Assembly (NCBI GenBank): GCA_963662275.1
Contig: OY759316.1
Coordinates: 192,001-256,000 of the forward strand
DNA length: 64,000 nt
Direction: 5' to 3'
Source: Candidatus Cloacimonadales bacterium
GTDB lineage: Bacteria; Cloacimonadota; Cloacimonadia; Cloacimonadales; DAONDQ01
Part shown: positions 13,288 through 54,914 of the stretch, piece by piece
Layout: each line of letters starts with the position of its first letter
Numbering within the stretch: the first letter of the stretch is position 1
Notes under the pieces: model-generated
Told to the model about the DNA's origin: nothing
Seen by the model: the letters and a program-made list of their open reading frames with translations, nothing else
Database searches by the model: none
Made by a program: the position numbers and the translations under genes

Positions 13288-13301
13288 ATTTTTTTATCTA
13301 G
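13288..13301. repeat. 14-bp target-site repeat ATTTTTTTATCTAG (also 14948-14961 and 16608-16621)
   Basis: Three identical copies flank and separate the two IS4-like elements. Confidence 0.9.
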
Positions 13302-14947
13302 CTCACATCCCCCCGTTTTTCAAACCAGGTATTTTTAGCTGCTGATTATCCAGCCATTTTCCTGCAAAAGGATTGAGCCTGTACCTTGTCACGGTGGCAA
13401 AACACATCTCTATCAGCATTGACAGACGATAATACACAAAGTCATATATCTGCTTCCACTGTTTATTTGAGTATTTCATAAGATTTGGGAAGGCATCTAA
13501 AAATACGCCAGCATACTTTTTCAGAGAATACAGGTAGCACATAGCTAGCAGAAGCAGCTGGTTCATGTTTTTCAGACGGGTATATGATTTCAGTTGTATC
13601 TTTTCCCAACCATATTCCTGCTTGATATGGCGATGGACCTCTTCGATTTTCCAGCGTATGCGATACATCCGCAAAACCTTCTCCATGATAGCATTTTCCG
13701 TCAGATAAGGTTGTGTCGGAAAGTCGCAGATGAAATAGAAATATCCCTGTCTGCCACTAGCATCGGGACTGAACTGTGCAACAATAAGCCAGGCATCTGT
13801 AGTATCAGGGTATTTTACAGGGTAAGGATTCAAACGCAGCTTCACCCGCGTTAAACCACATTTTATCTGTTGTCCTGATTCTTGCAGATTGAATGTATGA
13901 TCGAGTTTCACTGTCTTTGCCACTGCCATGAAGTTCTGTTCGCAGCCATCCATGATAAGACTTCTTTCACCTGTTGATCTGATGATATAGCTTAGTCCAT
14001 GTTCATGCAGAAAGCTGAATAGATTTCGGTTGTCAAAGCCACGGTCGAAAATAGTTACTCCACGGTTACCACTTGCAAGAATAATCCCCACTAGCCGGTC
14101 TTCCATGATCTGAGAGACGCTATCCAGTTCCATGTTTCGGGCTATCAGGTCTGAACTGATGGGTTTTATCTCATAGCCTGTACTGCCTGCCTGATAGGCA
14201 ATTATATTCAGCAATGCATAGCCCTGCTGATCATGACTGCCGGTGCTGCCATCACGCACCTTCTGCAATCCCTCCATCTTTTTGGCTTTGGTTTTTACGA
14301 TATCACTTTCATCAACTATGATGCCTGTCTCATCATCAAAACCCTGGCACTGATGCCTAATTATTTCCGCTTGCAGCTTATCTCCTAAGGGCTTCTTATT
14401 CAAATGTCGGGTGAAACGTTCGCAGAGCTTTTTAACCGTGATTGGTTCATTTAGCTGTTTCGCTATTTGGAGCATAATTACAGATTTACTTTTCAGTATC
14501 CCTAAGCAGATATCCTGTATGAACTTATACACAGGTAGAGATTGCGTTTCTCTAAAATTATTCAGAAATTGTAACAATTTTACTTGCAAGGTTTCTCTGG
14601 TTTTGATTTGCTTCTTATTAATCATGGGTGTCTCCTTCTTAGGTTTGGTTTAGTGCTTGAACAAAAGATCGGAGACACTTTTTTTGTACAGTTTTATTAT
14701 GGACATTCTATATAGTTATCTTATTTTCTCACATAATTTTATAAGTTTTATTAAAATACCTGCTTTTTGCTTTTACCGTGAAAACACAACTCTTCTGTTT
14801 ACCGTAAATTACAAATTGCACTAGTTTCTGTTTAGGAGTTTTGACCAACCAGTGATGTTAAACAGATTTTCAAAGTCGGCAAAACGTTTGACTGTTACTA
14901 TAAACGCTTCTAAACTAATTGTTAAGAAAATTACGGGGGGATGCCTG
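13302..14947 (-). mobile_element. IS4-superfamily insertion sequence, copy 1 (1646 bp)
   Basis: Imperfect TIRs CTCACATCCCCCCGT / CAGGCATCCCCCCGT; 14-bp direct repeats; single DDE transposase. Confidence 0.92.
13303..14625 (-). CDS. IS4-like DDE transposase (440 aa)
   Basis: IIVDESD, FDRGFD and Y-(2)-R-(3)-E-(6)-K signature YRIRWKIEEVHRHIK; stop codon lies inside the TIR. Confidence 0.93.
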   Translation of the reverse strand: MINKKQIKTRETLQVKLLQFLNNFRETQSLPVYKFIQDICLGILKSKSVIMLQIAKQLNEPITVKKLCERFTRHLNKKPLGDKLQAEIIRHQCQGFDDETGIIVDESDIVKTKAKKMEGLQKVRDGSTGSHDQQGYALLNIIAYQAGSTGYEIKPISSDLIARNMELDSVSQIMEDRLVGIILASGNRGVTIFDRGFDNRNLFSFLHEHGLSYIIRSTGERSLIMDGCEQNFMAVAKTVKLDHTFNLQESGQQIKCGLTRVKLRLNPYPVKYPDTTDAWLIVAQFSPDASGRQGYFYFICDFPTQPYLTENAIMEKVLRMYRIRWKIEEVHRHIKQEYGWEKIQLKSYTRLKNMNQLLLLAMCYLYSLKKYAGVFLDAFPNLMKYSNKQWKQIYDFVYYRLSMLIEMCFATVTRYRLNPFAGKWLDNQQLKIPGLKNGGM

Positions 14948-14961
14948 ATTTTTTTATCTAG

Positions 14962-16607
14962 CTCACATCCCCCCGTTTTTCAAACCAGGTATTTTTAGCT
15001 GCTGATTATCCAGCCATTTTCCTGCAAAAGGATTGAGCCTGTACCTTGTCACGGTGGCAAAACACATCTCTATCAGCATTGACAGACGATAATACACAAA
15101 GTCATATATCTGCTTCCACTGTTTATTTGAGTATTTCATAAGATTTGGGAAGGCATCTAAAAATACGCCAGCATACTTTTTCAGAGAATACAGGTAGCAC
15201 ATAGCTAGCAGAAGCAGCTGGTTCATGTTTTTCAGACGGGTATATGATTTCAGTTGTATCTTTTCCCAACCATATTCCTGCTTGATATGGCGATGGACCT
15301 CTTCGATTTTCCAGCGTATGCGATACATCCGCAAAACCTTCTCCATGATAGCATTTTCCGTCAGATAAGGTTGTGTCGGAAAGTCGCAGATGAAATAGAA
15401 ATATCCCTGTCTGCCACTAGCATCGGGACTGAACTGTGCAACAATAAGCCAGGCATCTGTAGTATCAGGGTATTTTACAGGGTAAGGATTCAAACGCAGC
15501 TTCACCCGCGTTAAACCACATTTTATCTGTTGTCCTGATTCTTGCAGATTGAATGTATGATCGAGTTTCACTGTCTTTGCCACTGCCATGAAGTTCTGTT
15601 CGCAGCCATCCATGATAAGACTTCTTTCACCTGTTGATCTGATGATATAGCTTAGTCCATGTTCATGCAGAAAGCTGAATAGATTTCGGTTGTCAAAGCC
15701 ACGGTCGAAAATAGTTACTCCACGGTTACCACTTGCAAGAATAATCCCCACTAGCCGGTCTTCCATGATCTGAGAGACGCTATCCAGTTCCATGTTTCGG
15801 GCTATCAGGTCTGAACTGATGGGTTTTATCTCATAGCCTGTACTGCCTGCCTGATAGGCAATTATATTCAGCAATGCATAGCCCTGCTGATCATGACTGC
15901 CGGTGCTGCCATCACGCACCTTCTGCAATCCCTCCATCTTTTTGGCTTTGGTTTTTACGATATCACTTTCATCAACTATGATGCCTGTCTCATCATCAAA
16001 ACCCTGGCACTGATGCCTAATTATTTCCGCTTGCAGCTTATCTCCTAAGGGCTTCTTATTCAAATGTCGGGTGAAACGTTCGCAGAGCTTTTTAACCGTG
16101 ATTGGTTCATTTAGCTGTTTCGCTATTTGGAGCATAATTACAGATTTACTTTTCAGTATCCCTAAGCAGATATCCTGTATGAACTTATACACAGGTAGAG
16201 ATTGCGTTTCTCTAAAATTATTCAGAAATTGTAACAATTTTACTTGCAAGGTTTCTCTGGTTTTGATTTGCTTCTTATTAATCATGGGTGTCTCCTTCTT
16301 AGGTTTGGTTTAGTGCTTGAACAAAAGATCGGAGACACTTTTTTTGTACAGTTTTATTATGGACATTCTATATAGTTATCTTATTTTCTCACATAATTTT
16401 ATAAGTTTTATTAAAATACCTGCTTTTTGCTTTTACCGTGAAAACACAACTCTTCTGTTTACCGTAAATTACAAATTGCACTAGTTTCTGTTTAGGAGTT
16501 TTGACCAACCAGTGATGTTAAACAGATTTTCAAAGTCGGCAAAACGTTTGACTGTTACTATAAACGCTTCTAAACTAATTGTTAAGAAAATTACGGGGGG
16601 ATGCCTG
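14962..16607 (-). mobile_element. IS4-superfamily insertion sequence, copy 2 (tandem, apparently identical)
   Basis: Repeat of 13302-14947 at period 1660; identical translated protein. Confidence 0.92.
14963..16285 (-). CDS. IS4-like DDE transposase (440 aa), copy 2
   Basis: Identical to 13303-14625. Confidence 0.93.
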   Translation of the reverse strand: MINKKQIKTRETLQVKLLQFLNNFRETQSLPVYKFIQDICLGILKSKSVIMLQIAKQLNEPITVKKLCERFTRHLNKKPLGDKLQAEIIRHQCQGFDDETGIIVDESDIVKTKAKKMEGLQKVRDGSTGSHDQQGYALLNIIAYQAGSTGYEIKPISSDLIARNMELDSVSQIMEDRLVGIILASGNRGVTIFDRGFDNRNLFSFLHEHGLSYIIRSTGERSLIMDGCEQNFMAVAKTVKLDHTFNLQESGQQIKCGLTRVKLRLNPYPVKYPDTTDAWLIVAQFSPDASGRQGYFYFICDFPTQPYLTENAIMEKVLRMYRIRWKIEEVHRHIKQEYGWEKIQLKSYTRLKNMNQLLLLAMCYLYSLKKYAGVFLDAFPNLMKYSNKQWKQIYDFVYYRLSMLIEMCFATVTRYRLNPFAGKWLDNQQLKIPGLKNGGM

Positions 16608-18167: not shown

Positions 18168-20672
18168 ATGAAAGAAGGTTTCTTATTCAGAAACGAGCAA
18201 TCTATTTTTTTTACAGATAGCATAAGCAACTGTGAAGATGTACTTCATAATTCAATTCTTGAACACCTGGAATATACGTTAGGCAAAGATAGAACAACGA
18301 CAAGGTACTGGGATGTATACCAGGCGTTGGCGTTAGCACTCAGAGACAGGCTCACGGAAAAGTGGTTGCGCACCCAGTATGAATACCGTAAGCGAGATGT
18401 AAAAAAATTATATTATTTATCCATGGAGTTTCTTGTTGGTCGTTTACTTGGTAATACCCTGATCAACTTGGACATCTACGAAGATTGCCGTAAAGTGCTT
18501 AAGGAAGTGGGATTCAATCTTGATGATATCGCTGAACTTGAACCGGATATGGGACTGGGGAATGGTGGTTTGGGAAGATTAGCAGCTTGTTTCATGGATT
18601 CACTTGCGACCCAGGAATATCCGGCTTATGGATATGGTATTCGTTATGAGTTCGGTATTTTCAAACAATGTATTCAGCAAGGATACCAGGTGGAAGAACC
18701 GGATAATTGGTTGAAAGGTGGTAACCCCTGGGAAATATGCAGACCATCAATCAATTATCGGGTACGTTTTGCAGGGAAAGTTGAAAAATATGAACAATCC
18801 GATGGAAGGACAGTTTATCATTGGGTAGATACAAGTGATGTTATGGCTGTTGCCTGGGATACACCTATACCGGGATATCAGACAAATACTGTCAATAATC
18901 TGCGTCTTTGGCAGGCAAAAGCCACCGATGAATTTGACTTTGATTATTTTAATCATGGTGATTATGTAAAAGCTGTTGAACGCAAGAATATCTCAGAGAA
19001 TATATCAAAAGTTCTTTATCCTAATGATAATCTTCATTTGGGCAAGATTCTCCGTCTTCAACAGGAGTACTTCTTTGTTTCTGCTACATTACAGGATATC
19101 TTCCATCATTATAAACGAGATCATGATTCCTTTAAGGAATTTCCTGAAAAGATAGCTGTTCAGTTGAATGATACACATCCTGCAATCGCTATTCCTGAAA
19201 TGATGCGAATACTAATGGATGAAGAACGTCTTAATTGGGAAGAAGCTTGGGATATCACTCAAAAAACCTTTGGTTATACAAATCATACGGTCATGCCTGA
19301 GGCTTTGGAAAAGTGGTCAGTGGCAATTTTTGAACAGATGCTTCCTCGGCATTTACTCATCATCTTCGAAATCAATAATCGTTTATTGAGTGAGGTTTCC
19401 AGTCTCTATCCCGGGAACCTGATTAAATTGAAGAACATGTCAATTATTGAAGAAGGCAAAGAGCAATTTGTACGTATGGCACAATTGTCTGTATTGGGTA
19501 GCCATTCCGTGAATGGTGTGGCTGAAATTCATACAGATATCATTAAAACACGTATTTTTCCTGATTACTTTGAACTATATCCTCAGAAATTCAATAACAA
19601 GACAAATGGTATTACCCAACGCTTATGGCTCAAGGAATGCAATCCATGGCTTGCAAAATTGATTACGAAAACCATCGGGGATAGATGGGCAATTGATTTA
19701 TACGAAATGAAGAAACTTGAATCTTGGGCTGATGATCCAGCTTTTCGTGCAAAATTCACGGAAGAAAAATGGAAAAATAAACAAGCATTGGCACGTTTTA
19801 TCCACAAGGAAAATGGAGTTCGGGTGAATCCTGCTTCGATGTTTGATGTGCATGTGAAACGTCTTCATGAATATAAACGTCAGCTTCTTAACTTATTACA
19901 TGTAATAACGTTGTATAACAGGATCAAAGCCGATCCCACCATTGATATTGTTCCCCGGACTGTGATCTTTGCCGGAAAAGCAGCGCCTGGGTATTTCGTG
20001 GCAAAATTAATTATCAAATTGATAAATTCCGTTTCAGATATTGTTAATTCAGACCCAGATGTTGGTGATAAACTCAAAGTGGTATTCTTGAAGAATTACT
20101 GTGTATCTCTTGCGGAACGGATTATTCCGGCAGCCGACCTCTCAGAACAGATATCAACCGCAGGTTATGAAGCTTCCGGAACTGGTAACATGAAGTTTGC
20201 TCTCAATGGAGCATTGACAATAGGCACTTTGGATGGTGCGAATGTCGAAATGATGGAGGAGTTTGGAGAAGAAAATATCTTCATATTTGGTCTAAAGGCA
20301 AACGAAGTGGTTGCTTTAAAAGAACATGGTTACCATCCCAACGATTACTATCATGGCAACATGGAATTGAAGAAAGCTCTGGATATGATTCAGTACAATT
20401 ACTTCTCCGTTAAGGAACCTGGTATCTTCAAACCGATCATTGATTCCCTGTTAAAACATGGAGATCATTTCCTATTGCTTGCTGATTATGCTTCTTACAT
20501 AGAAACGCAGGAAAGAGTCAGCAATGAGTTCCGCGATACTTCTAATTGGATGCGTAAAGCAATCCTGAATGTTGCCAGGATTGGTAAGTTCTCCAGTGAT
20601 CGAGCAATCAAAGAATATGCTGATGAAATCTGGCATATCAAACCTCGTGAAATCCAGATGAATAAAAACTGA
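18168..20672 (+). CDS. glgP: Glycogen/starch/alpha-glucan phosphorylase
   Basis: YYLSMEFL, GLGNGGLGRLAACF, QLNDTHP, KRLHEYKRQ, PLP-lysine motif EASGTGNMK. Confidence 0.97.
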   Translation: MKEGFLFRNEQSIFFTDSISNCEDVLHNSILEHLEYTLGKDRTTTRYWDVYQALALALRDRLTEKWLRTQYEYRKRDVKKLYYLSMEFLVGRLLGNTLINLDIYEDCRKVLKEVGFNLDDIAELEPDMGLGNGGLGRLAACFMDSLATQEYPAYGYGIRYEFGIFKQCIQQGYQVEEPDNWLKGGNPWEICRPSINYRVRFAGKVEKYEQSDGRTVYHWVDTSDVMAVAWDTPIPGYQTNTVNNLRLWQAKATDEFDFDYFNHGDYVKAVERKNISENISKVLYPNDNLHLGKILRLQQEYFFVSATLQDIFHHYKRDHDSFKEFPEKIAVQLNDTHPAIAIPEMMRILMDEERLNWEEAWDITQKTFGYTNHTVMPEALEKWSVAIFEQMLPRHLLIIFEINNRLLSEVSSLYPGNLIKLKNMSIIEEGKEQFVRMAQLSVLGSHSVNGVAEIHTDIIKTRIFPDYFELYPQKFNNKTNGITQRLWLKECNPWLAKLITKTIGDRWAIDLYEMKKLESWADDPAFRAKFTEEKWKNKQALARFIHKENGVRVNPASMFDVHVKRLHEYKRQLLNLLHVITLYNRIKADPTIDIVPRTVIFAGKAAPGYFVAKLIIKLINSVSDIVNSDPDVGDKLKVVFLKNYCVSLAERIIPAADLSEQISTAGYEASGTGNMKFALNGALTIGTLDGANVEMMEEFGEENIFIFGLKANEVVALKEHGYHPNDYYHGNMELKKALDMIQYNYFSVKEPGIFKPIIDSLLKHGDHFLLLADYASYIETQERVSNEFRDTSNWMRKAILNVARIGKFSSDRAIKEYADEIWHIKPREIQMNKN

Positions 20673-20694
20673 AAAAACTACCAGATTATGGGAC

Positions 20695-20840
20695 TCCCCC
20701 CACTTTTGTAAAGAGGGGGATTAAGGGGGCGTTAGTTCTGCTCTGCATTCGCACTTCATCCTTCACACTTCGAAATGGGGAATTAGTTCTGCTCTTTACT
20801 AGTCTCTAGCTTCTTCTGCATAAGGGAGAGTTAGTTCTCC
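20695..20840. repeat. Degenerate repeat cluster: C-run/G-run hairpin, three TTAGTTCT units, heptamer-periodic tract
   Basis: TCCCCCCACTTTTGTAAAGAGGGGGATTAAGG resembles the 49492 array unit; TTAGTTCT three times; CATTCGC/ACTTCAT/CCTTCAC/ACTTCG. Confidence 0.55.
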
Positions 20841-20871
20841 TTCAACAATTTAAGAAAGTATAAATTTTGAG

Positions 20872-22732
20872 GAGACTGTTCATGAAGTTATTCATAATAT
20901 TCAATAAGTTAGAAAGTAGCAAGTTGAAAAAAGTGGTCGAAACGGTCATAATTTAACATACCTTCCAGAATTGACAGATAAGCTCTGCTAAGGACACCAA
21001 ATCACAAGTTAAGCTTTTTGACTAAAATTGAAAAACACGCGATTATAAGTAATGTTTCGAAGCCGTTTCTGACTAAATGTGTAGTTAAAATCATATAAAA
21101 TAGTTCTTTACAAGTTTTTTGCTATAGCTTCAATGGCATTTGTTACCTGGTAACAAAAGGGAGGATATTATGACAAAAAAACACTCCAATTCAAGAAGCG
21201 GTAAGTGTTAGTCATGAAAGTAACCAATACCATGTAAGTATTAACGTACCATTTTCATTCACTTTGCCTGAGACAACATCAAACCACAAGTTCTTAATAG
21301 CGTTTCTACGCTTATTAGTAGGAATAGGCGGAGACAACCTCCTTACACTTCAGCAAATAGCTGATCTGTTTAACTACGCAGACCGCAGGAATGTACATAA
21401 TTTCTGGCAAGAGTTTGAGCAGCATGGTCATGATATCCTGGCATATTTAAGCCGGAAAGTTGACCTGCTGGAGTGTATTCCTCAGATCGAGAATTTTGTT
21501 ATCAATAACCTGCTTTTACCTTTAAATGTCATGTATCAGGAGTTCATCAGCCATCATGATTTTAAAATGTCCTATACCACTTTCTGCAAATATGCTTCTC
21601 AGGTCAATTCTCTGTCTGTAGTTAAGCAAGCTCAGAAGCTTCTTCTGAAAAAGACAGTAGGCGGTGATGCTGTACATCTGCTGAAACTGCTTGCCGGTCA
21701 GCAGAATACACCTGTTATCTGTGACAGACTCCTGGAACAAATGAAGACTGCTAAAGGCAATACATCCCATAGAACCGCCGATGCAAAGCCGTTCCATAGT
21801 CTGGAACGCAAGAACCTGTGTCTGCTGGTACATTACCTGGTTGGAAGCGGTATGAACTTCGAGACGATAGCTTTGCTGCTCAACACCTGTAAAGCTACAG
21901 TCTCAAATCTCTGGCATGAAATCGCTGACCTGCAGAGCCTGATTCTGAACTCAATCGGTAAGTGGAGCGGAAAGATCAGCATTGATGAGAAATATGTGAA
22001 GATCAAAGGTATTCCGTACTATGTCATCAGTATTGTTGATTTTGTGACTCACATCCCTCTGTTTTGTGAGTTGTATCCTGACACAAAGAAAGAATCATTC
22101 GAAGCATGTTTCAGAACCTTCAGACAGCTCTACAGGAAAGATCCAACCCTGATTGTCAGTGATGGCAGTAAATCGTTAGCAGTTGCAAGAAAAACAGTGT
22201 TTCCAAAAGTCCATTACCAACTCTGTAAGTTCCATAAGATACGAAATCTCTTCAAAAGAATCAGTCAATGTCATCTCCCTGAAGACAGGGACAAGTTCTT
22301 TAAGAAGAGGATTATGAAAGCTTTCCGAAGAGAAACGGCGGGCGGAAGGAAAAAGGGTATCGCAAGCCTGACAGCTATTACTCCCCCAACCGCCGCCGAA
22401 TACATCAAAAGCAATATCATTAGTGATTGGAGACACCTCAGCAAAGGTTTGACTTCCAATGTCTCTGAACGCTGGAACCGCAAAATCAAGAAGGTGACAT
22501 CCGGTAGATTTGGACTAAAATCTGAAGAAACCACCCGCAACCTTGTGTTTTCGCTTTGGTTCAAAGAACTGGTCGATAAAGGTCAACCAATCATGCGTCA
22601 GGAATCACTTTTAGCAAGTTTAAATATCTCCCGCATATGTCAAGAAAATGTGGATTGGTCGCACTTAGACCACTTTTTCTCTGTCACTACCAATAAGGCT
22701 GCGTAAAATGGAGGTTAATTTTGAACAGTCTC
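20872..22732 (+). mobile_element. Mutator-type (IS256/ISH6-like) insertion sequence, copy 1 (1861 bp)
   Basis: Perfect 11-bp TIR GAGACTGTTCA; 8-bp TSD ATTTTGAG at 20864-20871 and 22733-22740. Confidence 0.92.
21264..22706 (+). CDS. DDE transposase with Mutator/IS256-like CxxH motif; true start may be ATG 21170 via frameshift
   Basis: SIDEKYVKIKG, IVSDGS, QLCKFHKIRN (CxxH), TSNVSERWN; two HTH-like segments in the N-terminal half. Confidence 0.88.
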   Translation: MPETTSNHKFLIAFLRLLVGIGGDNLLTLQQIADLFNYADRRNVHNFWQEFEQHGHDILAYLSRKVDLLECIPQIENFVINNLLLPLNVMYQEFISHHDFKMSYTTFCKYASQVNSLSVVKQAQKLLLKKTVGGDAVHLLKLLAGQQNTPVICDRLLEQMKTAKGNTSHRTADAKPFHSLERKNLCLLVHYLVGSGMNFETIALLLNTCKATVSNLWHEIADLQSLILNSIGKWSGKISIDEKYVKIKGIPYYVISIVDFVTHIPLFCELYPDTKKESFEACFRTFRQLYRKDPTLIVSDGSKSLAVARKTVFPKVHYQLCKFHKIRNLFKRISQCHLPEDRDKFFKKRIMKAFRRETAGGRKKGIASLTAITPPTAAEYIKSNIISDWRHLSKGLTSNVSERWNRKIKKVTSGRFGLKSEETTRNLVFSLWFKELVDKGQPIMRQESLLASLNISRICQENVDWSHLDHFFSVTTNKAA

Positions 22733-22765
22733 ATTTTGAGATTATGAAGTAAAAAACAAATAATA

Positions 22766-22772
22766 CTTGACT
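22766..22772 (+). promoter_or_regulatory. -35-like box CTTGACT upstream of the FG-GAP protein gene
   Basis: About 90 bp before ATG 22861, preceded by an A-tract; TTGACT starts 26 bp after the IS TSD. Confidence 0.5.
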
Positions 22773-22860
22773 CGCTAAGTTGCTCAATCACAGGATAATA
22801 ATATTATCCGAAATTTCTTGTATTTCTTCATGAATTGCATAGAATTATAAGGAGAACGAG

Positions 22861-25800
22861 ATGTATTTAGCCAAAAAATTAGGTACTTTTCTGCTTAAAC
22901 AACTTAAATTAACTTTATTATGTGTTTCAATCCTATGTATCCCATTGAGTCTAGTCGCCCAGTTCACTCATATCGATGCTGGATTAACTGGTGTTGAAAG
23001 TGGTGCAGTAGCTTGGGGTGACTACGATAATGACGGAGACTTAGATATTTTGCTAACTGGGGCAATTAATAGTACTGGAAATTGTATTTCCAAAATTTAT
23101 TGCAATAATGGAAATTCTACTTTTACTAGCTTAAACGCGGGACTAACTAATGTTGATTTAAGCGCTGTTGCATGGGGAGACTTAGATAATGATGGTGATT
23201 TAGATATTATTTTAACGGGGAATACAAGTTCAAGTAGTGTTACAAGAATCACTAAAATTTATCGTAACAACGGAAATTCTACATTCACTAGCATAACTAC
23301 AGGACTTATTAGCATATATTGTGGCTCTGTCGCCTGTGGAGATTATGATAATGACGGTGACCTTGATATTCTGTTATCCGGGGGCGCAAGCACAGGATAT
23401 ATTTCTCGAATTTATCGCAATGACGGAAATTTTATCTTCACAGACATTAATGCGGGTCTGCCCGGTGTTAGTGGTTCTGTTGCCTGGGGTGACTATGATA
23501 ACGACGGGGATCTGGATATTCTATTGACAGGATCGTCTAATCTTGGTAATATTTCACGAATCTATCGCAACGATGGTAATTCTACTTTCACCGACATCAT
23601 CGCAGGATTACCTGGCGTTTATGCTAGCTCTGTAGCCTGGGGTGACTACGATAACGATGGGGATATTGATATCCTTTTAACAGGATCCACTGGTAATGAG
23701 TTCATTTCGAAAATCTACCACAATAATGGGAATTCTACATTCTCTGCTATCAACGCCGGATTAACTGGCATTATATCTGGCTCTGCAGCTTGGGGAGACT
23801 ACGATAATGATGGGGATTTAGATGTTCTATTGTCAGGATATTCTTCTAGCAGAATTTCCAGAATCTATCGCAACGATGGTAACTCAGTTTTCACTAACAT
23901 TAGTGCGGGACTTATTGGCGTTGATGGTTGCTCAGTAGCCTGGGGTGATTATGATAATGACAAAGACTTAGATTTTCTTTTATCTGGTAATTGGAGCGGA
24001 GATTATATTTCCTATATCTATCGCAACAATATCAATTCTCTTAATAGTGTCCCATCAGCGCCTTCGAATCTTAGAAAATCCGTTATTGGAACTAACTTAA
24101 TACTGCAATGGAATGCATCGAGCGATATACAAACACCTTCAGCAGGTTTGAATTATGTGCTCAGAATTGGTACTGCCTCTGGAAGTTACAACATAAGTTC
24201 ACCTATGGCAAATCTGACAACCGGTTATAGAAGAATACCTATAATTGGTTATGCTAATTCGATTTGTAAATGGAAAATTGATAGAAATTCACTCATTCAA
24301 GGAACGACATATTATTGGAGTGTACAAGCCATAGATACCGCACTTGGGGGGTCTTCATTTTCAGCAGAAGCAACATTTAATGGAAATATGGTTTATTATT
24401 CAATTTCGGGCAATATCCTTGATTATCAAAATGTTGGGATAGAGGGTGTTATTATCACTGCTTCAGATGTTGGTAGTTGTCAATCTCAATCCGACGGTTC
24501 TTTTCAAATTAGTGTTCCCGAGAACTGGAACGGTATTTGTAGTGCCAGTAAAACTGGTTGGGTTTTCAGCCCGTCTTCAAAATCTTACTCGAATGTATGT
24601 GCTACTACAACCGATCAGAACTTCAGAGGTAAATTAGCTCCTCCAATATTTTCGGTAGCAGGGGGAAATTATTCTACGGCTCAAAGTATCACTCTATCAT
24701 CATTAGCTCAAGGAATCATCAAATATAAATATTCATTATTATACATAACTCCCACGTATTATTCAGGTACAAATTTCTGGTTTCCTATTAATATATCCCA
24801 TAATTCGACAATTCAAGCGATTGCATATATAGAAGGACAGCCTGGGACGGTATCTGACAAAGCAACTGCCAGTTATAATATTGGAACAGGACAAAATGAT
24901 CCTCTGAATCTAACCGTAATTGATTCCCGGAATCAAGCTTATTCTGTCGAATTAACAATCGACAAACCTGGTCTCTATTTGAATTCACATATTAATAAAG
25001 ACATTGGCAGCAGTGGTAAAGTTTCTTTCATAATAGATGATTTTACAAATCAATCTCATTTCGATTCAAGTAATTTAACCAGAATTTCGATTCTAAATGA
25101 AGCAGGCATTGAAATCGGACACATGAAAATAAACGATCTTCCAATCAGCAAGATAGTAACAAGTACAATAAATGCAATCATCGTTGTACATAGTGAACAT
25201 ACACCTTTTGATTCACCAACAGGCTACCCTTGGCAATACTATGCTTATAACGAACGCATGGTTTCCATGATCATCAAACCACCGGTTATCCGCAATAGTA
25301 AAGTTCCTTTACTGCTTGTGCATGGCATTGGCGATTCCTACCCACATTTTGGAGAAAACTGGCTCTCCCAGTTGCAAACAGCCAAAGATTTTGATATCTG
25401 GCAATTTTACTATCCCTACGACCAACAGATAGAACTATCTGCCGGACTGCTTCGCGACGCCCTGGCTCGAATTCAAGTCAACAACTATACACTAAACAAT
25501 GGTCGCATCAATATCCTGGCTTATAGCATGGGTGGACTAGTTACACGAACTTACATACAAAGTCCTAATTATCAAAACAACATTAATAAATTACTTATGC
25601 TGGGAACTCCTAATCACGGTTCCCATTCGACTTATCGATTGAACAAAACCGGATATCCATTAACAGAAATCGCTAATGATTTTTTAATACACCAGGATCA
25701 AAACTCTCCTGCTGTAAAAGAAATGGTTCCTAATTCTTATTTCATTAATGGGCTGAATGCTTCTCCACCCCGTCCTTTGTTTCCTGGAGCTAATAATCAA

Positions 25801-28677
25801 AATACATACCTAGTGCTTGCCGGTAATTTGAACGAGTCAAAATTTATGCCGTTGACTTCAGTCGGAGAAGTGTATTATCCGGAAAATTCAGATGATGCTG
25901 TTGTGTCCGTCAGTAGTGCCAGTCTATTGGAATTCAATATTCCTCTGGCAATTTATTCATGTAATCATAAGGCACTTGTTGGTAATCCAATACCTCTGAT
26001 CCACATCACATCAGTGATATACCCCGGACAGCACATCGCACCATTTTTCGATAATTCCTACAACCCTATGACAAGCTCATTTAAGAATTCCTTTAACAGG
26101 TTCCTAACCCATGTTCCAAACGAAATGAATTGTGCAGGTAATTTTTATGCAACTTTCAACACATTACTCAATTCTAAAGTTATTCCGGTTGAATTAGGGA
26201 ATCACAACGGACAGTTGATTCTCGATTTGAACTTCGGAATTACGGAAACAATCATACACAAAATTACAAATCACTCCAAAAGTATGGATGATTTACTTGA
26301 TAGCCAGGGAGCATCACTACTTTCAGCAAATTCCCAAATAATCGATTCTAATTACTTTCTCGAAGTGACCAATATATTTAATGAACCTCTTGCTTATGTT
26401 AAAAAGGGTCTTGGTTCAAACTTCAACAGCGGTTCGTATTTATTTAGGCTTAAGAAGCTGGGATCAACCTTCAAAACGGTTCGGAGTCCAGTTAATTTTG
26501 GCAGTTATTGTACCAATAATGTTTATTTTAATTTAGTACCAGGTGAACAGGCGATTGCACGGCTCAATAACGGTTTACCTCAACCGACACGTACCTGCTT
26601 TCGGGAACAGGGACGAACAATTCGTGAAGAGCAGTATTATGTGGACAGCTCAATGGATTCACTTGTATTCTATCTTGGTTCAGAGGATAATCCCATCTTT
26701 GCATCTCATGGAGCTTATCTCTTGGCTCCTGATAATACAATCATAGATACTCTGTATGCCTTTAACTCTCCAGATGTTGATTTCAGCCAGGATATTGAAG
26801 CCGGATTTGCATATTATTATGTAAGAAATCCTATGGCAGGTTTATGGAAATTACGCTATAACGATGCCCTACCAGATTCTGTTTCAGCTACTTACATTGA
26901 TAGTCCCATCTCCATATCCGTTACTATCCCTGATTCTTCATATGCCATCAGGGAAAGAGTTGATGTTAAACTGCCATTGCCAAAGCCTATAACCTATACC
27001 CAACCTCAATTCATGGTAGGTCTCAGCTATGTGGATTCAACGGGTGTTAATCACATAATAGGCAATATCACATCTACCAATAATCCTGCAGATTCATCTT
27101 ATTCCTGCTTTTTCATACCAGTAAATCCAGGTAGTTATAGAATCAATGTTGATTTCCAATGTCAATTGGGAACAGAAACTGTCCGCAGGCATTTGGAAAG
27201 TTTTGTGAATGTCCAGGAAATACAGATTCCTCAGTTACTGACTCCTTCTGATGGAACTGCCAATTTGCTGAATCCGGTGACATTGACTTGGAAATCAACC
27301 CCAAGTGCTTCGTCCTATTATTTGGAAATTTATTCCTGGGCTGATTCTTTGCCTGCAGTATCTATCTCTGTAACTGATACCACATATTCCGTAAATAACT
27401 TGTTACCTGGCAGCAAGTATTATTGGCTGGTGCGGTCTGTCAGTCCTTATGGTACAAGCCAATCCTCTTCCATAAATCATTTCTATACAAAAATCAACAG
27501 CCCTGTACTGCTTAGTCCTACTCATAATTCACTGGATATGCCAAAAGTTGTGGATCTCAACTGGGAAGCTGCCAGGGGCGCAACTTACTACCATTTTCAA
27601 TTATCTGAGTCTCCCACCTTCAGCTTTTGTACAATCAGCGATTCACTCTGCTCAGAAAACAGCTATCAGATCAATGATCTGAGCAATACTCAAACGTATT
27701 ACTGGCGGGTGGCAGCCATTAACGAATATGGAAAAAGTGAATGGTCTCAAGTTTTTTCTTTTACAATAAGAAGATACACGATCAGTTTTCCAGCCAATAT
27801 GCAGAGCAATGAAGATAATATTCTCTCCCTCTACTTGCCTAGATATATTGACGATTTTGATCCAAACAACACCCAAGTCTCTATATCCGGGAATGTGCAT
27901 CTAATTCCAACCTATTTAACGGACAGTATTAATCTTACACCAAATGAGAATTGGTCAGGTCATGAAGATCTAATCCTGACAATCAGCTCTGCTTCCCGAA
28001 CTCAAAATTCTCATGCAGAACAAATGGTGAAGGGACAGAATGATCGAAATACCATCATTGATACAATCAGTGTGGATATACTTCCTGTGAATGATCTGCC
28101 AACGATGTCATTTCAAAATACATTAGTCTTTTGGGATAATGAGTCAACAGTCATTGATTTCACTCCCTTTTTAGGCGATATTGACAACGCAGTTTCAGAA
28201 ATCAGTGTTACAGCAGTTGGAAGTACTCACTTGGGAATTAGAGTTAGAGGAAGAGTGATCAGAATTATTCGGGAAGATGGATGGTATGGAAATGAACCGA
28301 TTACGATTAATCTGTCTAATAGCCTGCGTGGCTCATCAAAGAATATCAATGATTGCAGTTCCTACAATATCAATGTTTTCTTTATCAATTCACAACCTGT
28401 CATCTTTGCTTTCACTATCGCTAACAATATGATGACGCTGAAATGGAATTTGATCAAGGATGCCACTTCCTATCGAGTACTCTCTTCAAGTATTTACTCA
28501 GATAACTTTACCGATATTACCGATACTGGAACGATATACTTCCATAAGAATGAGATTATGTGGCAATCAGCAGCTACAAACCAGGAGAGGTCTTTTTATC
28601 AGGTACAGGCAATTAAAAACCAATTGAGAAATACTGGTGCAGGAAATTCCTTAACAAAAGATCTATTCGAGAGATAA
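22861..28677 (+). CDS. Large secreted multidomain protein: 7 FG-GAP/VCBS repeats, FN3/Ig domains, PGAP1-like alpha/beta-hydrolase, cadherin-like repeats (1938 aa)
   Basis: Seven (W/C)GD(Y/L)DND(G/K)D repeats; YYWSVQA/YYWRVAA FN3 motifs; LLLVHGIG...LAYSMGGLVTR...LGTPNHGS hydrolase motifs; AAGGAG RBS. Confidence 0.82.
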   Translation: MYLAKKLGTFLLKQLKLTLLCVSILCIPLSLVAQFTHIDAGLTGVESGAVAWGDYDNDGDLDILLTGAINSTGNCISKIYCNNGNSTFTSLNAGLTNVDLSAVAWGDLDNDGDLDIILTGNTSSSSVTRITKIYRNNGNSTFTSITTGLISIYCGSVACGDYDNDGDLDILLSGGASTGYISRIYRNDGNFIFTDINAGLPGVSGSVAWGDYDNDGDLDILLTGSSNLGNISRIYRNDGNSTFTDIIAGLPGVYASSVAWGDYDNDGDIDILLTGSTGNEFISKIYHNNGNSTFSAINAGLTGIISGSAAWGDYDNDGDLDVLLSGYSSSRISRIYRNDGNSVFTNISAGLIGVDGCSVAWGDYDNDKDLDFLLSGNWSGDYISYIYRNNINSLNSVPSAPSNLRKSVIGTNLILQWNASSDIQTPSAGLNYVLRIGTASGSYNISSPMANLTTGYRRIPIIGYANSICKWKIDRNSLIQGTTYYWSVQAIDTALGGSSFSAEATFNGNMVYYSISGNILDYQNVGIEGVIITASDVGSCQSQSDGSFQISVPENWNGICSASKTGWVFSPSSKSYSNVCATTTDQNFRGKLAPPIFSVAGGNYSTAQSITLSSLAQGIIKYKYSLLYITPTYYSGTNFWFPINISHNSTIQAIAYIEGQPGTVSDKATASYNIGTGQNDPLNLTVIDSRNQAYSVELTIDKPGLYLNSHINKDIGSSGKVSFIIDDFTNQSHFDSSNLTRISILNEAGIEIGHMKINDLPISKIVTSTINAIIVVHSEHTPFDSPTGYPWQYYAYNERMVSMIIKPPVIRNSKVPLLLVHGIGDSYPHFGENWLSQLQTAKDFDIWQFYYPYDQQIELSAGLLRDALARIQVNNYTLNNGRINILAYSMGGLVTRTYIQSPNYQNNINKLLMLGTPNHGSHSTYRLNKTGYPLTEIANDFLIHQDQNSPAVKEMVPNSYFINGLNASPPRPLFPGANNQNTYLVLAGNLNESKFMPLTSVGEVYYPENSDDAVVSVSSASLLEFNIPLAIYSCNHKALVGNPIPLIHITSVIYPGQHIAPFFDNSYNPMTSSFKNSFNRFLTHVPNEMNCAGNFYATFNTLLNSKVIPVELGNHNGQLILDLNFGITETIIHKITNHSKSMDDLLDSQGASLLSANSQIIDSNYFLEVTNIFNEPLAYVKKGLGSNFNSGSYLFRLKKLGSTFKTVRSPVNFGSYCTNNVYFNLVPGEQAIARLNNGLPQPTRTCFREQGRTIREEQYYVDSSMDSLVFYLGSEDNPIFASHGAYLLAPDNTIIDTLYAFNSPDVDFSQDIEAGFAYYYVRNPMAGLWKLRYNDALPDSVSATYIDSPISISVTIPDSSYAIRERVDVKLPLPKPITYTQPQFMVGLSYVDSTGVNHIIGNITSTNNPADSSYSCFFIPVNPGSYRINVDFQCQLGTETVRRHLESFVNVQEIQIPQLLTPSDGTANLLNPVTLTWKSTPSASSYYLEIYSWADSLPAVSISVTDTTYSVNNLLPGSKYYWLVRSVSPYGTSQSSSINHFYTKINSPVLLSPTHNSLDMPKVVDLNWEAARGATYYHFQLSESPTFSFCTISDSLCSENSYQINDLSNTQTYYWRVAAINEYGKSEWSQVFSFTIRRYTISFPANMQSNEDNILSLYLPRYIDDFDPNNTQVSISGNVHLIPTYLTDSINLTPNENWSGHEDLILTISSASRTQNSHAEQMVKGQNDRNTIIDTISVDILPVNDLPTMSFQNTLVFWDNESTVIDFTPFLGDIDNAVSEISVTAVGSTHLGIRVRGRVIRIIREDGWYGNEPITINLSNSLRGSSKNINDCSSYNINVFFINSQPVIFAFTIANNMMTLKWNLIKDATSYRVLSSSIYSDNFTDITDTGTIYFHKNEIMWQSAATNQERSFYQVQAIKNQLRNTGAGNSLTKDLFER

Positions 28678-28999: not shown

Positions 29000-31900
29000 A
29001 TGACAAAAAATCAATTACTTTTTTTGGTTGTATTGCTTCTCGCTTCTGTGTCACTTCTGGCGATTTCCGTCCATGATATCCAATACACGACCATTGCTGG
29101 GACAGATAATACCTACCCATCGTTGTATTTACAACTAACTGTGACACTTACCAACGTTGTTGTGACAGCAAAAAATTATTCAGGAGGCTATACAATTGGA
29201 GATACATGGTTCGTTTCTGATCCTGGAGGCGGACCTTGGTCAGGTTTATTCGTGTATAACCATTCCTTTTTGGATGGAATTTTAGTAGGTGATCTTGTCA
29301 ATATAACAGGTTATATATATGAATATTATGGAACGACTGAATTAGCAGGTGTGACAGCAGTTGAAATAATCAGTCACGGGAATCCAATTCCTGAACCGAT
29401 TAACATCACCACAGGAATCATGACTCAACCTGAACTGATCGAACCTTATGAAAATGTACTTGTCCAAGTTCAGGATGTTACAGTGACAGCTATTCCTTCA
29501 GCTTCAGCAAATTATGAATGGAGTGTGACAGATAACAGTGGTGCCTGTCTAATAGATGATGGGTTTTCAACTGTCCTTATGTGGTCCGGTTTACATACCC
29601 AGCCATTTCTCAATGAAAATTGGGTATTGATAACGGGTATGGTTTTGAGTGTTGCTCCAAGTAATGAAATGACTATTAATCCCCGTTTTTATTCTGATCT
29701 AATTCAACAGGTTGGTATTCACTCAGTTTATGATGTCCAATATACTCCTTTTGCTGGCAATGGCACATATCCATCACAGCTTAGTGATCAAACAATAACC
29801 CTTACAAATGTCATGGTAACTGCGAAGGACTATTCAGGTTCTAACACTGCGGGAAACAAATGGTTTGTTTCCGATATTGGCGGAGGTCCTTGGTCAGGTT
29901 TGCTCATCAATGATTCATCCTACTATAATAATATTTTAGTTGGTGATATTGTCAATGTCACAGGGACTGTGGCTGAATATAATGGACAAACAGAATTGGG
30001 AGAAGTGACTTCTGTTGAAGTGATTAGTCATGGAAATATACAACCTCGTCCTATCCAGATAACTACGAGTATGATGTCCCAACCAAATCAGATCGAACCC
30101 TATGAAAGTGTTCTTGTGAAAGTCCTGGGAGTAAGAGTGACAACTGCTCCTTCTGTTCCTAATTATGAATGGTATGTAACAGATAACAATGGTCTCTGCC
30201 AGATAGATGACGGTTTTACTCCACTTCTTGCCTGGAATGGGTTAAATCCTTACCCGATAATCAACCAGACTTGGGTGAAGATTGTCGGAATTATTGATTA
30301 TAGTAATAACGAATATGCAATCAACCCTCGTTTTACAACAGATCTGATGCAAACAGGAGATGGTGGTCCCATTTATGAAATCCAATACACAACCGTTGCT
30401 GGCATAGGTAATACATACACATCGCTGTATGTAGGTCAAACTGTCACACTTACTAATGTCGTTGTCAGTGCAAAAGGATATGGAAATATCCAGGGCAATT
30501 CCTGGTTTATATCTGATCCTGCCGGAGGTCCCTGGTCAGGTCTGTATGTTTATGACTATACATTTTATAATAATATTTTAGTTGGGGATATGGTCAATAT
30601 TACGGGAACGATTGTAGAATATTCCGGGTTAACCGAGTTTAATCCTTCAGCAGTTGAAGTGATCAGCCATGGAAATCCAATTCCTGGACCGGTTATTATA
30701 TCAACAGGAATGATGACTCAACCGGAGCAGATCGAACCTTATGAAAGTTCTTTGGTTCAAGTTCAAAATGTTAGGGTGACAGCTATTCCTTCTGCAACTT
30801 ATTATGAATGGTATGTGACTGATAATAGCGGTATTTGTCAAATAGATGATGGTTTTTCAACAGTGCTTACTTGGTCAGGAGTCATTCCTCCAATTTATAT
30901 TAACCAAACTTGGGATATAATCAAGGGTATTGTTGATTACAGCCACAATGCGTATGCAATTAATCCGCGGTTTTATGCTGATTTGAATATACCCGGCAAT
31001 GTTCAATCTGTCCGGACAGTCCAATATACGACAATTGCCGGAGATGGCACATATCCATCACTATTTGCCGGTCAGACAGTGACATTAAATGTCGTAGTCA
31101 CCGCAAAAGGTTACTCGGGTACAAATGGTACTGGAGACAAGTGGTTTGTTTCCGATCTTGCAGGAGGTCCCTGGTCAGGTTTACTTATTAACGATACTGC
31201 TCATGCCGATAGTATTTTGGTTGGAGATCTCGTTTCAGTGTCAGGAACGGTAACAGAAAATAATGGAATGACTGAATTGACTGATGTTACATCAGTTTCC
31301 GTTGTAGGGCACGGCTATTCGGTTCCTCAGCCGATTGTTATCACTACAGACAAGATGACACAACCAGCACAGATTGAACAATATGAAGGTTGTCCTGTCA
31401 TTATTAGTAATGTTTGTGTGACATCTCCTCCATCTGCTGAAAATTATGAATGGTATGTAACAGATAATAGTGGTCAGTGTCAGGTTGATGACGGTTTTAC
31501 TTCAGTACTTGCTTGGAATGGATTGACCCCTTATCCAATAATAGACCAAAACTGGATTCAGATAAAAGGTATAATAGATTATAGTAATAATGAATATGCC
31601 ATCAATCCACGTTTTACTTCGGATTTGATGCAAACAGCAGTTGGTATGTCAGTTCATGATATTCAGTTCACCACAATTGCCGGTGATGGCACATTTCCAT
31701 CCTTGTATTCAGGTCAAACAGTCACAATTGCGAATGTCGTTGTAACAGCTAAAGGCTATTCAGGTTCAACCTTTGCGGGAGATAGGTGGTTTGTTTCCGA
31801 TCCTGCTGGAGGTCCTTGGTCTGGTTTATATGTTTATGATAATACATATTACAATAGTGTTCAAGTTGGCGATCTTGTGCTTGTGACAGGACAGATAACT

Positions 31901-52916: not shown

Positions 52917-52923
52917 TGTCAAG
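52917..52923 (-). promoter_or_regulatory. -35-like box CTTGACA upstream of the 917-aa gene
   Basis: TTGACA on the minus strand about 45 bp before the ATG; starts 26 bp after the IS TSD. Confidence 0.55.
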
Positions 52924-52956
52924 ATAAATATTTAGACGATAAGAAAAACCTTATAT

Positions 52957-54817: not shown

Positions 54818-54914
54818 CCTTATATGTCCTCATTCATCCTAACCATACTCGTGAATGGTTATTCATTACCATTAGTGTGGATTTTAAGCAAATGTTATAA
54901 ATAACATTTCACGA

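Follow-up and report, generated by a model that had tools for sequence, protein, structure and literature searches.

An Insertion Sequence of Cloacimonadota That Inserts One Way at a Fixed Distance Upstream of Promoter -35 Boxes

An insertion sequence (IS) that is present in 39 full-length copies in the genome of a Candidatus Cloacimonadales bacterium was confirmed to insert one way at a fixed distance upstream of the -35 box of host promoters, and it is, by functional class, a promoter-targeting transposable element. The preferred explanation, to which a probability of roughly 55% is assigned, is that the element is an active IS of a distinct family that picks the -35 element and that its transposase itself has a TTGACA-binding function.

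The Element and Its Genomic Copies

Two copies of the element were identified in the window, the 64,000-nucleotide stretch of contig OY759316.1 that was analyzed. Copy 1 (20872-22732, plus strand) and copy 2 (52957-54817, minus strand, inverted relative to copy 1) are each 1861 bp long and show 100% identity across 1864 nt. Copy 1 is flanked by the target duplication ATTTTGAG on the left (20864-20871) and on the right (22733-22740), and copy 2 by the target duplication CCTTATAT, found toward the promoter (52949-52956) and again on the far side (54818-54825). An exact 8-bp target duplication surrounds 36 of the 39 copies in the genome. This is an active element that is subject to selection: 29 copies are identical, and the differences that set apart a second subfamily (152 sites) lie mostly at codon position 3 (65 out of 100 in-frame sites).

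An alignment of the two ends revealed a perfect terminal inverted repeat of 11 bp, GAGACTGTTCA on the left (20872-20882, plus strand) and its reverse complement on the right (22722-22732, minus strand), past which the ends diverge. The tips read GAGACTG...CAGTCTC, with a terminal C at the ends of the inverted repeats, and the direct repeats (8 bp) have one of the two lengths, 8 or 9 bp, expected along with it. The two ends also have a subterminal box in common, AAAAAGTGGTC at IS positions 57-67 on the left (20928-20938, plus strand) and its reverse complement 55-65 nt from the right tip (22668-22678, minus strand), and a similar box is found at the equivalent place in relatives. Most of the records in which the family was found bear the title Candidatus Cloacimonadota. 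When contigs from four public runs were compared with positions 20500-23100 of the window, the depth ratio between the IS and its flanks was ~27-48, and there was no joint across the IS and no empty site or circle junction. An orthologous empty site was also sought in a genome of the same genus, where the flanking gene shares only 78% identity and the DNA between the genes could not be aligned.

A Fixed Register and a Single Orientation

The box next to copy 1 is C-TTGACT (22766-22772, plus strand) in front of a gene of 1938 aa (22861-28677), and the box next to copy 2 is C-TTGACA (52917-52923, minus strand) in front of a gene of 917 aa (52872-50119). Each box lies 26 nt past the duplication, and all coordinates of the initial annotation, which had placed both window copies 26 bp from a TTGAC box preceded by C, hold. 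That annotation had proposed to look for TTGAC at a fixed offset past the 3′ end of all copies, and the check bore out the expectation: the first letter of TTGAC is nucleotide 34 (3 copies), 35 (26 copies), or 36 (8 copies) after the right end of the IS in 37 out of 39 copies, the exceptions being the copies at C1:1227387 and C1:3726777. Because TTGAC occurs in this genome at a background frequency of 0.00089 per position per strand, ~0.1 of 39 copies are expected to carry it by chance within a 3-nt window, and the binomial probability of the observed register is of the order of 1e-90. The sequences of the duplications and of the spacers are unrelated among the copies, in keeping with the earlier proposal that the spacing to the box is conserved and the target sequence is not.

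The same register was found among relatives from other genomes and metagenomes whose transposases are 30-76% identical. TTGAC is located 33-36 nt past the right end in 61 out of 70 distinct right junctions. In four further junctions another family member adjoins after 6-8 bp, as expected if one site is struck again. Relatives with a different terminus contribute six more junctions with TTGAC at 34-36 nt and one more tandem arrangement. The orientation is the same in every case (37 out of 37 sites here and 61 out of 61 in relatives), with the right end, on the 3′ side of the transposase gene, toward the promoter as initially described.

The Transposase

The reading frame of the transposase (21174-22706, plus strand) consists of 510 open codons, or 480 aa when counted from TTG at 21264, the first start listed. 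The start ATG of the transposase, which follows GGGAGG, is itself followed by ACA-AAAAAA-C (21170-21182, plus strand), and the main frame lies in +1 with respect to this ATG. Two Pfam models match above their cut-offs, MULE with 32.6 bits against a cut-off of 27.6 and Transposase_mut with 27.7 bits against a cut-off of 21. The residues D241, D300, C321, H324, and E402 are invariant in 22 sequences, and so are the CxxH motif and the DEKY context of the first aspartate that had been singled out initially. The protein is a Mutator/IS256-like DDE enzyme: it has the DDE triad, its C/D(2)H signature comes shortly behind the second Asp, and the Glu is preceded by a helical insert.

The best structural match is ISCth4 (PDB 6xgx/6xg8, Foldseek E 2e-7). 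The predicted model aligns with ISCth4 over 262 residues (Z 17.4, rmsd 5.5), with model residues 172-442 corresponding to chain residues 100-387, which leaves ~170 modelled residues and 31 more upstream of them with no equivalent in IS256. Based on the homology with ISCth4, the element probably moves by a copy-out/paste-in route. The family-specific part is formed by the ~200 residues before GMNFETIALLLNTCKATVSNLW, including LTLQQIADLF; GMNFETIALLLNTCKATVSNLW itself, initially considered an extra HTH, aligns instead with the canonical HTH domain of ISCth4. The N-terminal ~200 residues are predicted to fold into a three-stranded sheet, a winged-helix-like unit, and a helical domain, and residues 130-180 form a flexible linker of low confidence in the predicted model. 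A Foldseek search with the N-terminal model returned a best match at E 0.07 and nothing at E ≤ 0.001, and a wide structure search with VIA gave Z scores of 5-6.5 that concern the canonical HTH only, with ties among KorB, LsrR, DeoR, and sigma region 4.

Established family models do not accommodate the protein. The NCBIfam model for IS256 (NF033543) matches the catalytic part only with 47.8 bits (E 9.5e-13) against a cut-off of 150, and the model for IS6 (NF033587) reaches 42.3 bits against a cut-off of 125. The transposase displays no match at E ≤ 1 to the models for ISLre2/TnGBS (NF033529) and ISKra4 (NF033572). Across the whole genome, with its 39 copies, the ISKra4 model gave no match and the ISLre2 model none at E ≤ 0.001, the latter being a model whose controls gave none either, so that this genome-wide negative counts for little on its own. 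A tblastn search in plasmids identified annotated relatives only within IS256 (E 3e-5) and IS6. The failure of the family models, together with the promoter-targeting behavior, therefore places the element in a separate lineage alongside TnGBS, ISLre2, and ISKra4, and the distinct IS group postulated in the initial annotation is upheld by the register in 37 out of 39 copies here and in 61 out of 70 distinct junctions elsewhere.

TTGACA Sites inside Both Ends

Both ends contain an internal TTGACA that reads inward. The left site (20971-20976, plus strand) falls in non-coding DNA, 100 nt away from the left tip. Among relatives, an inward TTGAC(A/T) occurs at 96-112 nt in all 36 distinct left ends, and TTGACA is kept in all ten lineages compared, where the surrounding non-coding DNA is otherwise unconserved and no conserved -10 follows the hexamer. 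The right site (22638-22643, minus strand) is located 90 nt from the right tip within the Cys-Gln codons of an invariant ICQE, and an inward TTGAC(A/T) is present at 71-104 nt in 58 out of 60 distinct right ends of relatives. The codons at this site are TGT-CAA in 57 out of 60 cases, compared with ~32% expected and with 23 out of 65 at a Gln/Cys pair used as control. Judged by this codon usage, the right-end TTGACA is held at synonymous positions. The internal sites of both ends are conserved throughout the family and are under selection at the level of the DNA. TAAACT-like hexamers follow the right-end TTGACA at 15 nt in five out of seven lineages, and the site could on that account be a mere antisense promoter. 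In several relatives, a further and better promoter lies around position 198-204.

TTGACA at both ends is a newly observed feature relative to the published promoter-targeting families, as far as the available parts of the publications describe them; those of Guerillot 2014 (PMC3942029) make no mention of it for TnGBS/ISLre2. The conservation of the inward TTGACA at both ends favors direct reading by the transposition machinery, with a route via sigma and RNA polymerase as a rival.

Host Promoters and the Reading of the -35 Box

TTGACA is a genuine promoter element in this genome: its sense-strand occurrences are strongly enriched in the region 40-120 nt ahead of genes, and at -60 to -80 relative to ORF starts each 20-nt bin contains 135-156 sense vs. 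16-21 antisense occurrences. Perfect TTGAC shows an excess on the promoter side (832 sense vs. 295 antisense), whereas variants with one mismatch are flat. Target sites and natural upstream TTGAC boxes have in common a C at -36, an A at -30, and A/T at -38 to -44. A -10 box of the form TAnnnT at 16-19 nt was found in 5 out of 37 target sites compared with 11-18% in controls, and this absence of enrichment rules out the -10 box as part of the target. The promoters of this poorly studied group depend on a near-invariant TTGAC and have a weak -10.

In the preferred reading, the transposition machinery selects its target via the promoter -35 element [C/A]TTGAC[A/T], with an 8-bp staggered cut whose center precedes the hexamer by ~30 bp and with the right end always toward the promoter. 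Promoter and gene are left intact, which makes the IS sites safe havens. Most likely, the TTGACA-binding function would reside in the family-specific N-terminal ~200 residues and would also bind the inward TTGACA located ~100 nt from the left tip and ~90 nt from the right tip. The capture of host promoters would then follow from their resemblance to the subterminal sites of the IS itself, and the asymmetry of the ends past the 11-bp repeat would set the orientation. The more specific proposal of end mimicry, in which a transposase domain other than a sigma domain may read TTGACA at the element's own subterminal sites and at host promoters over a rigid 34-bp distance, is given chances just short of even. 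The flexible linker fits poorly with a ruler that is accurate to ±1 bp, and neither Foldseek nor VIA provided a significant structural match for the N-terminal model. Moreover, the observations would look the same whether the transposase reads TTGACA or docks on the sigma-A or RNA polymerase that sits on it. The perfect boxes at 37 out of 37 sites and their matching flanks are also predicted by the sigma route because only perfect TTGAC shows the promoter-side excess. Perfect TTGAC was therefore dropped as an argument for direct readout, natural promoters here likewise using only perfect TTGAC.

The strongest alternative, tentatively plausible but on balance doubtful, is that the host is the reader: the transposase would dock on region 4 of sigma-A or on the RNA polymerase holoenzyme at the -35 box and insert at the upstream edge of the footprint (~-62 to -69), and the subterminal TTGACA would represent ordinary promoters (sense, and antisense at the 3′ end) or sites that recruit polymerase. 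RNA polymerase and its alpha subunits contact the DNA up to just short of the IS insertion point, in line with docking. Docking also agrees with the match between target sites and natural promoters at every informative position, with the exclusive use of perfect TTGAC by the promoters, with the canonical region 4.2 of the host sigma-A (TRERIRQIEDKALRKL), and with the -10-like hexamer at 15 nt from the right-end box in most lineages. Docking on RNA polymerase is, furthermore, the published model for TnGBS/ISLre2 in the accessible text of PMC3942029. However, the transposase fails the models of ISLre2 and ISKra4, the groups in which the published promoter-targeting signature was defined (a motif with a conserved Asp between N1 and N2; Fig. 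8 of PMC3942029, as far as available). Docking also leaves the left-end TTGACA fixed at 96-112 nt without any conserved -10, sits poorly with the second promoter near 198-204 in several relatives, and is at odds with two targets that lie inside genes.

These two insertions bear the motif. One interrupts a CheB-CheR gene within its CheB domain and the other an 847-aa ORF that was hit on its antisense strand, indicating that TTGACA with T-rich upstream DNA suffices as a target. They also count against random or AT-biased insertion followed by selection for intergenic sites upstream of promoters. Such a process would purge gene disruptors and would account for the absence of a spanning ORF of at least 80 aa at 32 out of 37 sites and for the co-oriented ORF start within 250 nt at 34 out of 37, but a fixed register (±1 nt) in one orientation, retained at 30% transposase identity, is beyond selection and refutes this explanation, to which the tandem copies 6-8 bp apart are also opposed, leaving it extremely improbable. 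Equally improbable is that the TTGAC box and the preceding 34 nt are part of the element as an outward promoter: the box always adjoins the right end, but the alignment of the flanks refutes this, with 8-bp direct repeats bracketing the 1861-bp unit in 36 out of 39 copies, the 26 nt between duplication and box unrelated among copies, and open frames of 616 and 847 aa restored when the unit and one repeat are excised.

Significance

Promoter-homing transposons (TnGBS/ISLre2 and ISKra4) have been in print for more than a decade (PMC3942029, in its available parts), and the accessible portions of the literature searched name no promoter reader for them. The family described here adds a separate lineage, about 100 mapped sites, and a new geometry (34 nt compared with 16). 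The 2014 survey searched for -35 boxes up to 30 bp (legend of Fig. 4, PMC3942029, as available), which suggests, if the proposal of end mimicry is true, that this limit hid more long-distance promoter-homing families. The element would then also be the first promoter-targeting bacterial transposon with the transposase itself as the reader. The target word inside both ends offers a clue, open to testing, to the way in which such transposons locate promoters and turns -35 sensing into a bench question on the N-terminal domain and TTGACA. For use as a tool, an enzyme that naturally inserts DNA at a set distance upstream of promoters and leaves them unbroken is of interest.

Comparison with Known Systems

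The TnGBS ICEs were reportedly treated by Brochet in 2009. As far as the accessible text of PMC3942029 shows, TnGBS/ISLre2 (p-MULT 3) and the present element have in common a Mutator DDE transposase with the C(2)H signature, a duplication of 8-9 bp, a right end beside a sigma-A type -35 box at a distance fixed to ±1 bp, and asymmetric inverted repeats that go with a single orientation. They differ in their hosts, mainly records titled Cloacimonadota here compared with Firmicutes. The -35 box lies 33-35 nt (mode 34) from the IR end here compared with 13-17 in TnGBS/ISLre2 (available part of Table S2, PMC3942029), where the published 15-17 bp are likewise counted from the IR end with the duplication included. 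The spacing, initially put at one helical turn longer than in TnGBS/ISLre2, is thus actually ~18 bp longer. The ISKra4 group (p-MULT 4) is Mutator-like, occurs in many phyla, and inserts ~16 bp upstream of -35 boxes with near-perfect repeats in both orientations (PMC3942029, in part), in contrast to the one orientation and ~18 bp longer spacing found here. A literature search, with ISfinder outside its scope, yielded no description of the family or of the 34-nt register, and the available text of Supplements 2-4 of PMC3942029 holds no entry for Cloacimonas, Cloacamonas, Cloacimonetes, or WWE1.

With ISCth4 of the IS256 family, as described in the accessible text, the element has in common the layout of HTH, RNase H, and helical insertion and the 8-bp duplication. 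The HTH domain of ISCth4 contacts base pairs 7-11 of the terminal repeat (PMC7780238, in its available part), and the termini of the present element begin with GAGnCTGT, like those of IS1113 (Table S1). Insertion of IS256 is reported to be random (available text of PMC3942029). The N-terminal region is ~100 residues longer than in ISCth4 and unrelated to its dimerisation and NDB domains, and the length of 1.86 kb with a structured left end of 300 nt is a further difference from the IS256 family.

Elements of the IS30 and IS3/IS911 type insert into targets that resemble their own ends. If the direct-reading model is right, the present element would be like them in that the target motif is also the binding site in its own ends; in contrast to them, the shared motif is the -35 hexamer of the host, located 82-112 nt inside the ends instead of at the tips.

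Insertion at a Constant Spacing to TTGAC

The window contains an exact inverted pair of arms (20871-22734 and 52955-54818), within which the junctions delimit two copies of an 1861-bp insertion sequence (IS), copy 1 at 20872-22732 on the plus strand and copy 2 at 52957-54817 on the minus strand. The element has a perfect 11-bp terminal inverted repeat (GAGACTGTTCA) and is flanked by 8-bp target duplications (ATTTTGAG for copy 1 and CCTTATAT for copy 2). Beyond the right end (the transposase 3' side) of both copies, the duplication is followed by 26 unrelated nt and then by a box, C-TTGACT at 22766-22772 (plus strand) for copy 1 and C-TTGACA at 52923-52917 (minus strand) for copy 2, behind which lie genes for 1938 aa (22861-28677) and 917 aa (52872-50119), respectively. 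This is the arrangement described in the initial annotation, and every part of it was correct on re-reading the junctions.

The source genome is a single 4.38-Mb contig (C1) with 39 full-length copies. TTGAC starts 34 (3 copies), 35 (26 copies) or 36 (8 copies) nt past the right end in 37 of the 39, at a genome-wide background frequency of 0.00089 per position per strand, and the fixed offset proposed from two copies thereby extends to the further copies. The aligned target sites have only [C/A]TTGAC[A/T] and A/T at -38 to -44 in common; the duplicated 8 bp and the spacer contain no sequence information. Integration is shown to be targeted, oriented and keyed to TTGAC, with no dependence on the -10 or on the duplicated sequence. 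The register, the orientation and the lack of relation among the spacers exclude both selection by itself and a box that the element would bring along. The two exceptions are C1:1227387, where the insertion lies at a 209-aa ORF's stop codon, and C1:3726777, within an ATP-grasp gene.

Twenty-nine copies are identical, three carry a single change, two are at 98% and five at 92% identity. The main and 92% subfamilies differ at 152 positions, 100 of them in the reading frame, where 65 fall on codon position 3 and 31 of 511 amino acids are changed. One copy (C1:1352207-1354067) is a recombinant between both subfamilies, with the first ~410 nt from the 92% subfamily and the remainder from the main one. 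The 8-bp duplication is exact in 36 of 39 copies; it matches at 7 of 8 positions in one, is a shifted 7-bp repeat in another and is absent from the third (C1:2889658-2891518), whose flanks (GGGAGGAA and TTAAAAAG) suggest a rearrangement between copies. In public runs containing the locus, contig depth on the element is ~27-48 times that of the flanks.

The window contains further repeats. Short dispersed or tandem repeats occur at 20697-20840 and 49518-49826, directly upstream of copy 1 and as an array of five units; they are of two kinds (GGGGGATTAAGG..., in units of 50-64 nt, and ...GTTAGTTCTGCTCT...) and look REP-like, the first having many matching places in a genome of the same genus. Two 300-nt stretches (13288-13587 and 14948-15247) are 100% identical and 1660 nt apart. 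The large secreted-protein genes downstream of copy 1 contain long in-frame repeat modules (22963-23987 and 29198-32076), with FG-GAP-like units of ~150 nt and units of ~640 nt.

The Register across the Family

Of 232 genomes from the phylum, 30, source genome included, have homologous transposases (~508 aa) at E<=1e-20; named sources are Candidatus Cloacimonadota/Cloacimonetes and single records labelled Poribacteria, Anaerolineaceae and Desulfurella. TTGAC lies at 33-36 nt in 20 of 23 evaluable loci from other genomes (26 loci in all) and at 33-38 nt in 50 of 56 evaluable metagenome loci (80 loci, first end pattern). Removal of duplicates left 70 distinct right junctions, 61 of which have TTGAC at 33-36 nt (33: 2; 34: 22; 35: 28; 36: 9); among the other nine, four adjoin another member's left end at 6-8 bp, two carry TTGAC at 38 and TCGAC at 35, respectively, and three show none of these. 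Twelve loci with another terminus (…GAACAGTGTC) fell outside the first end pattern, and the seven with enough flank comprise six with TTGAC at 34-36 nt and one tandem. No clade without the register was found among relatives down to 30% identity.

In tandems, 6-8 bp separate one member's right end from the next member's left end (L043:480-520, and loci L047, L060, L067, L100 and L134); at L043 a second member occupies the identical 8 bp, with ATTGAAAA as the common duplication. These cases fit a target that survives insertion, since the stretch from duplication to box is unaltered, and point to one promoter being struck repeatedly.

At L043:600-2230 and in the matching copy L044 (genome G194), two related IS copies are interrupted by a 1.6-kb IS66-family element (termini GTAACTACTCAGGTACC, duplication CCTAAAAC) inserted within the left end, at IS positions 95-102 and 104-111. 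Its end at L043 is 14 nt from the left-end TTGACA, and it may be another element drawn to that box.

Host Promoters

Based on crude ORF calls (2739 ORFs), sense TTGACA peaks 60-80 nt ahead of ORF starts (135-156 per 20-nt bin vs 16-21 antisense), and TTGAC occurs 832 times in sense and 295 times in antisense between -140 and -24, where one-mismatch variants show no excess (the largest being TTGAA, +52, and TTGCC, +36). Natural upstream sites (n=830) have C at -36 (42%), A at -30 (60%) and A/T at -38 to -44, flanks that recur at IS targets, and only a faint -10 (T at -8, 51%). Because of the sense-strand excess, the flat one-mismatch variants and the common flanks, TTGAC is a genuine and unusually invariant -35 element in this genome, with a weak -10; promoters of this organism seem to rely on it.

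A TAnnnT hexamer 16-19 nt downstream is found at 5 of 37 IS sites; its rate is 11% across TTGAC[AT] sites as a whole and 18% where the DNA upstream of them is AT-rich. No TAnnnT peak appears at IS sites at any spacing tested; genome-wide, TAnnnT is slightly enriched at a 15-16 nt spacer. A spanning ORF of at least 80 aa is absent at 32 of 37 sites, a co-oriented ORF starts within 250 nt at 34 of 37, and one target precedes a putative tRNA gene (by eye). Two motif-bearing insertions break genes: one divides a CheB-CheR gene within its CheB domain (positions 1-76 of the Pfam profile upstream and 89-174 downstream of the IS), and the other is antisense in an 847-aa ORF.

TTGACA inside the Element Ends

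Both ends have an 11-bp repeat and a box AAAAAGTGGTC (57-67 left, 55-65 right) in common, and both carry an inward-reading TTGACA: ATTGACA at 20971-20976 (plus strand, position 100 from the left tip) and CTTGACA at 22643-22638 (minus strand, position 90 from the right tip). It is present at both ends in 10 of 10 lineages compared; among distinct metagenome ends it occurs in 36 of 36 on the left (96-112 nt) and in 58 of 60 on the right (71-104 nt, chiefly 81-93). No outward-reading copy occurs within the first 220 nt of either end in 14 elements. The left site is non-coding, with otherwise unconserved surroundings that lack a conserved -10; in several relatives a further TTGACA near 198-204 comes with a better -10 and is a likelier transposase promoter. 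The right site is the Cys-Gln codon pair of an invariant ICQE motif, and the extended site TTTTCTTGACA encodes C-Q-E-N/K. Of 65 distinct ORFs, 60 have CQ, and 57 of these encode it as TGT-CAA; outside this pair, TGT accounts for 56% of Cys codons and CAA for 56% of Gln codons, and the Gln/Cys pair of the invariant QLCKFH is CAA plus TGT in just 23 of 65. This comparison uses related sequences and is not a formal test, but the internal control pair varies freely. At both ends, selection acts on the DNA word TTGACA itself.

The favoured mechanism, with a probability of roughly 0.55, is that the transposase would read TTGACA directly, on its own ends and on host promoters. Docking of the transposase on sigma-A or polymerase is the main rival and a real, if lesser, possibility: natural promoters here are as invariant as IS targets, and the box at the right end, with a TAAACT-like hexamer 15 nt further on in 5 of 7 lineages, may be a genuine antisense promoter. 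The conserved TTGACA words inside the ends favour direct reading.

The Transposase and Its Start

The transposase matches Pfam MULE (32.6 bits, cut-off 27.6) and Transposase_mut (27.7, cut-off 21), with DDE_Tnp_IS240 and ISL3 below threshold; NCBIfam IS256 (47.8 bits) and IS6 (42.3) are under their cut-offs of 150 and 125. A tblastn search against plasmids retrieved only IS256 (E 3e-5, ~31% over 156 aa) and IS6 family genes. D241, D300, E402 and C321-x-x-H324 are invariant in 22 aligned homologues. The full AlphaFold model (pLDDT 79) matches ISCth4 in Foldseek (E 1.8e-7) and in a superposition of model 172-442 on chain 100-387 (Z 17.4, 262 residues, rmsd 5.5); a PDB-sequence profile search gave ISCth4 alone (E 8e-4). 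In ISCth4, described as an IS256-family copy-out/paste-in transposase, repeat base pairs 7-11 are contacted by the HTH domain (residues 108-165) and base pairs 14-25 by the NDB domain ahead of it (PMC7780238). By homology with ISCth4, the element probably uses copy-out/paste-in chemistry. The second HTH-like segment, initially taken for an extra HTH, is the canonical one, since the ISCth4 HTH domain corresponds to it. The ~200 residues N-terminal to it are family-specific; modelled separately (pLDDT 72.9) they form three strands, a winged-helix-like unit, a helical domain and a low-confidence linker. This model had no significant Foldseek match, and VIA gave only tied matches (Z 5-6.5) to the canonical HTH, including KorB, LsrR and several sigma region 4 domains.

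The transposase ATG, which has a strong GGGAGG ribosome-binding site before it, is not in the frame of the 510-codon ORF and leads into an A7 run (21170-21182 in copy 1, minus-strand 54519-54507 in copy 2, L057:860-872 in a relative). For ATG-ACA-AAAAAA-C to yield MTKNTPIQ..., a match to the N-termini that relatives encode in frame (MKKN.., MSKKA..), the mRNA must lose one A or the ribosome must shift by +1. The run is kept in 39 of 39 copies, including the 92% subfamily, and in a 76% identical metagenome relative; it has the appearance of programmed recoding, by transcriptional slippage or a +1 frameshift, which would limit transposase supply.

Comparison with Known Promoter-Homing Elements

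Guerillot et al. (2014; PMC3942029) described five p-MULT families of Mutator-like transposases. Both TnGBS/ISLre2 and the ISKra4 group land upstream of sigma-A -35 boxes, with ~16 bp between box and right repeat; asymmetric repeats accompany a single orientation, and docking on the polymerase initiation complex was proposed (PMC3942029). The present family works alike, yet lies outside those groups: the ISLre2 and ISKra4 NCBIfam models do not match the transposase at E<=1, and neither matches anywhere in the source genome, a weak result for ISLre2, whose control also matched nowhere. Distances in Table S2 of that study run from the repeat end with the duplication included (e.g., 17 nt ahead of TTGACA; PMC3942029); on this scale the present family stands at 33-35 nt, ~18 bp further out. 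The promoter count in Figure 4 stopped at 30 bp from the junction (PMC3942029), so a 34-nt register was invisible to the survey. The closest relatives in sequence and fold are IS256-like, and for IS256 insertion is reported as random (PMC3942029).
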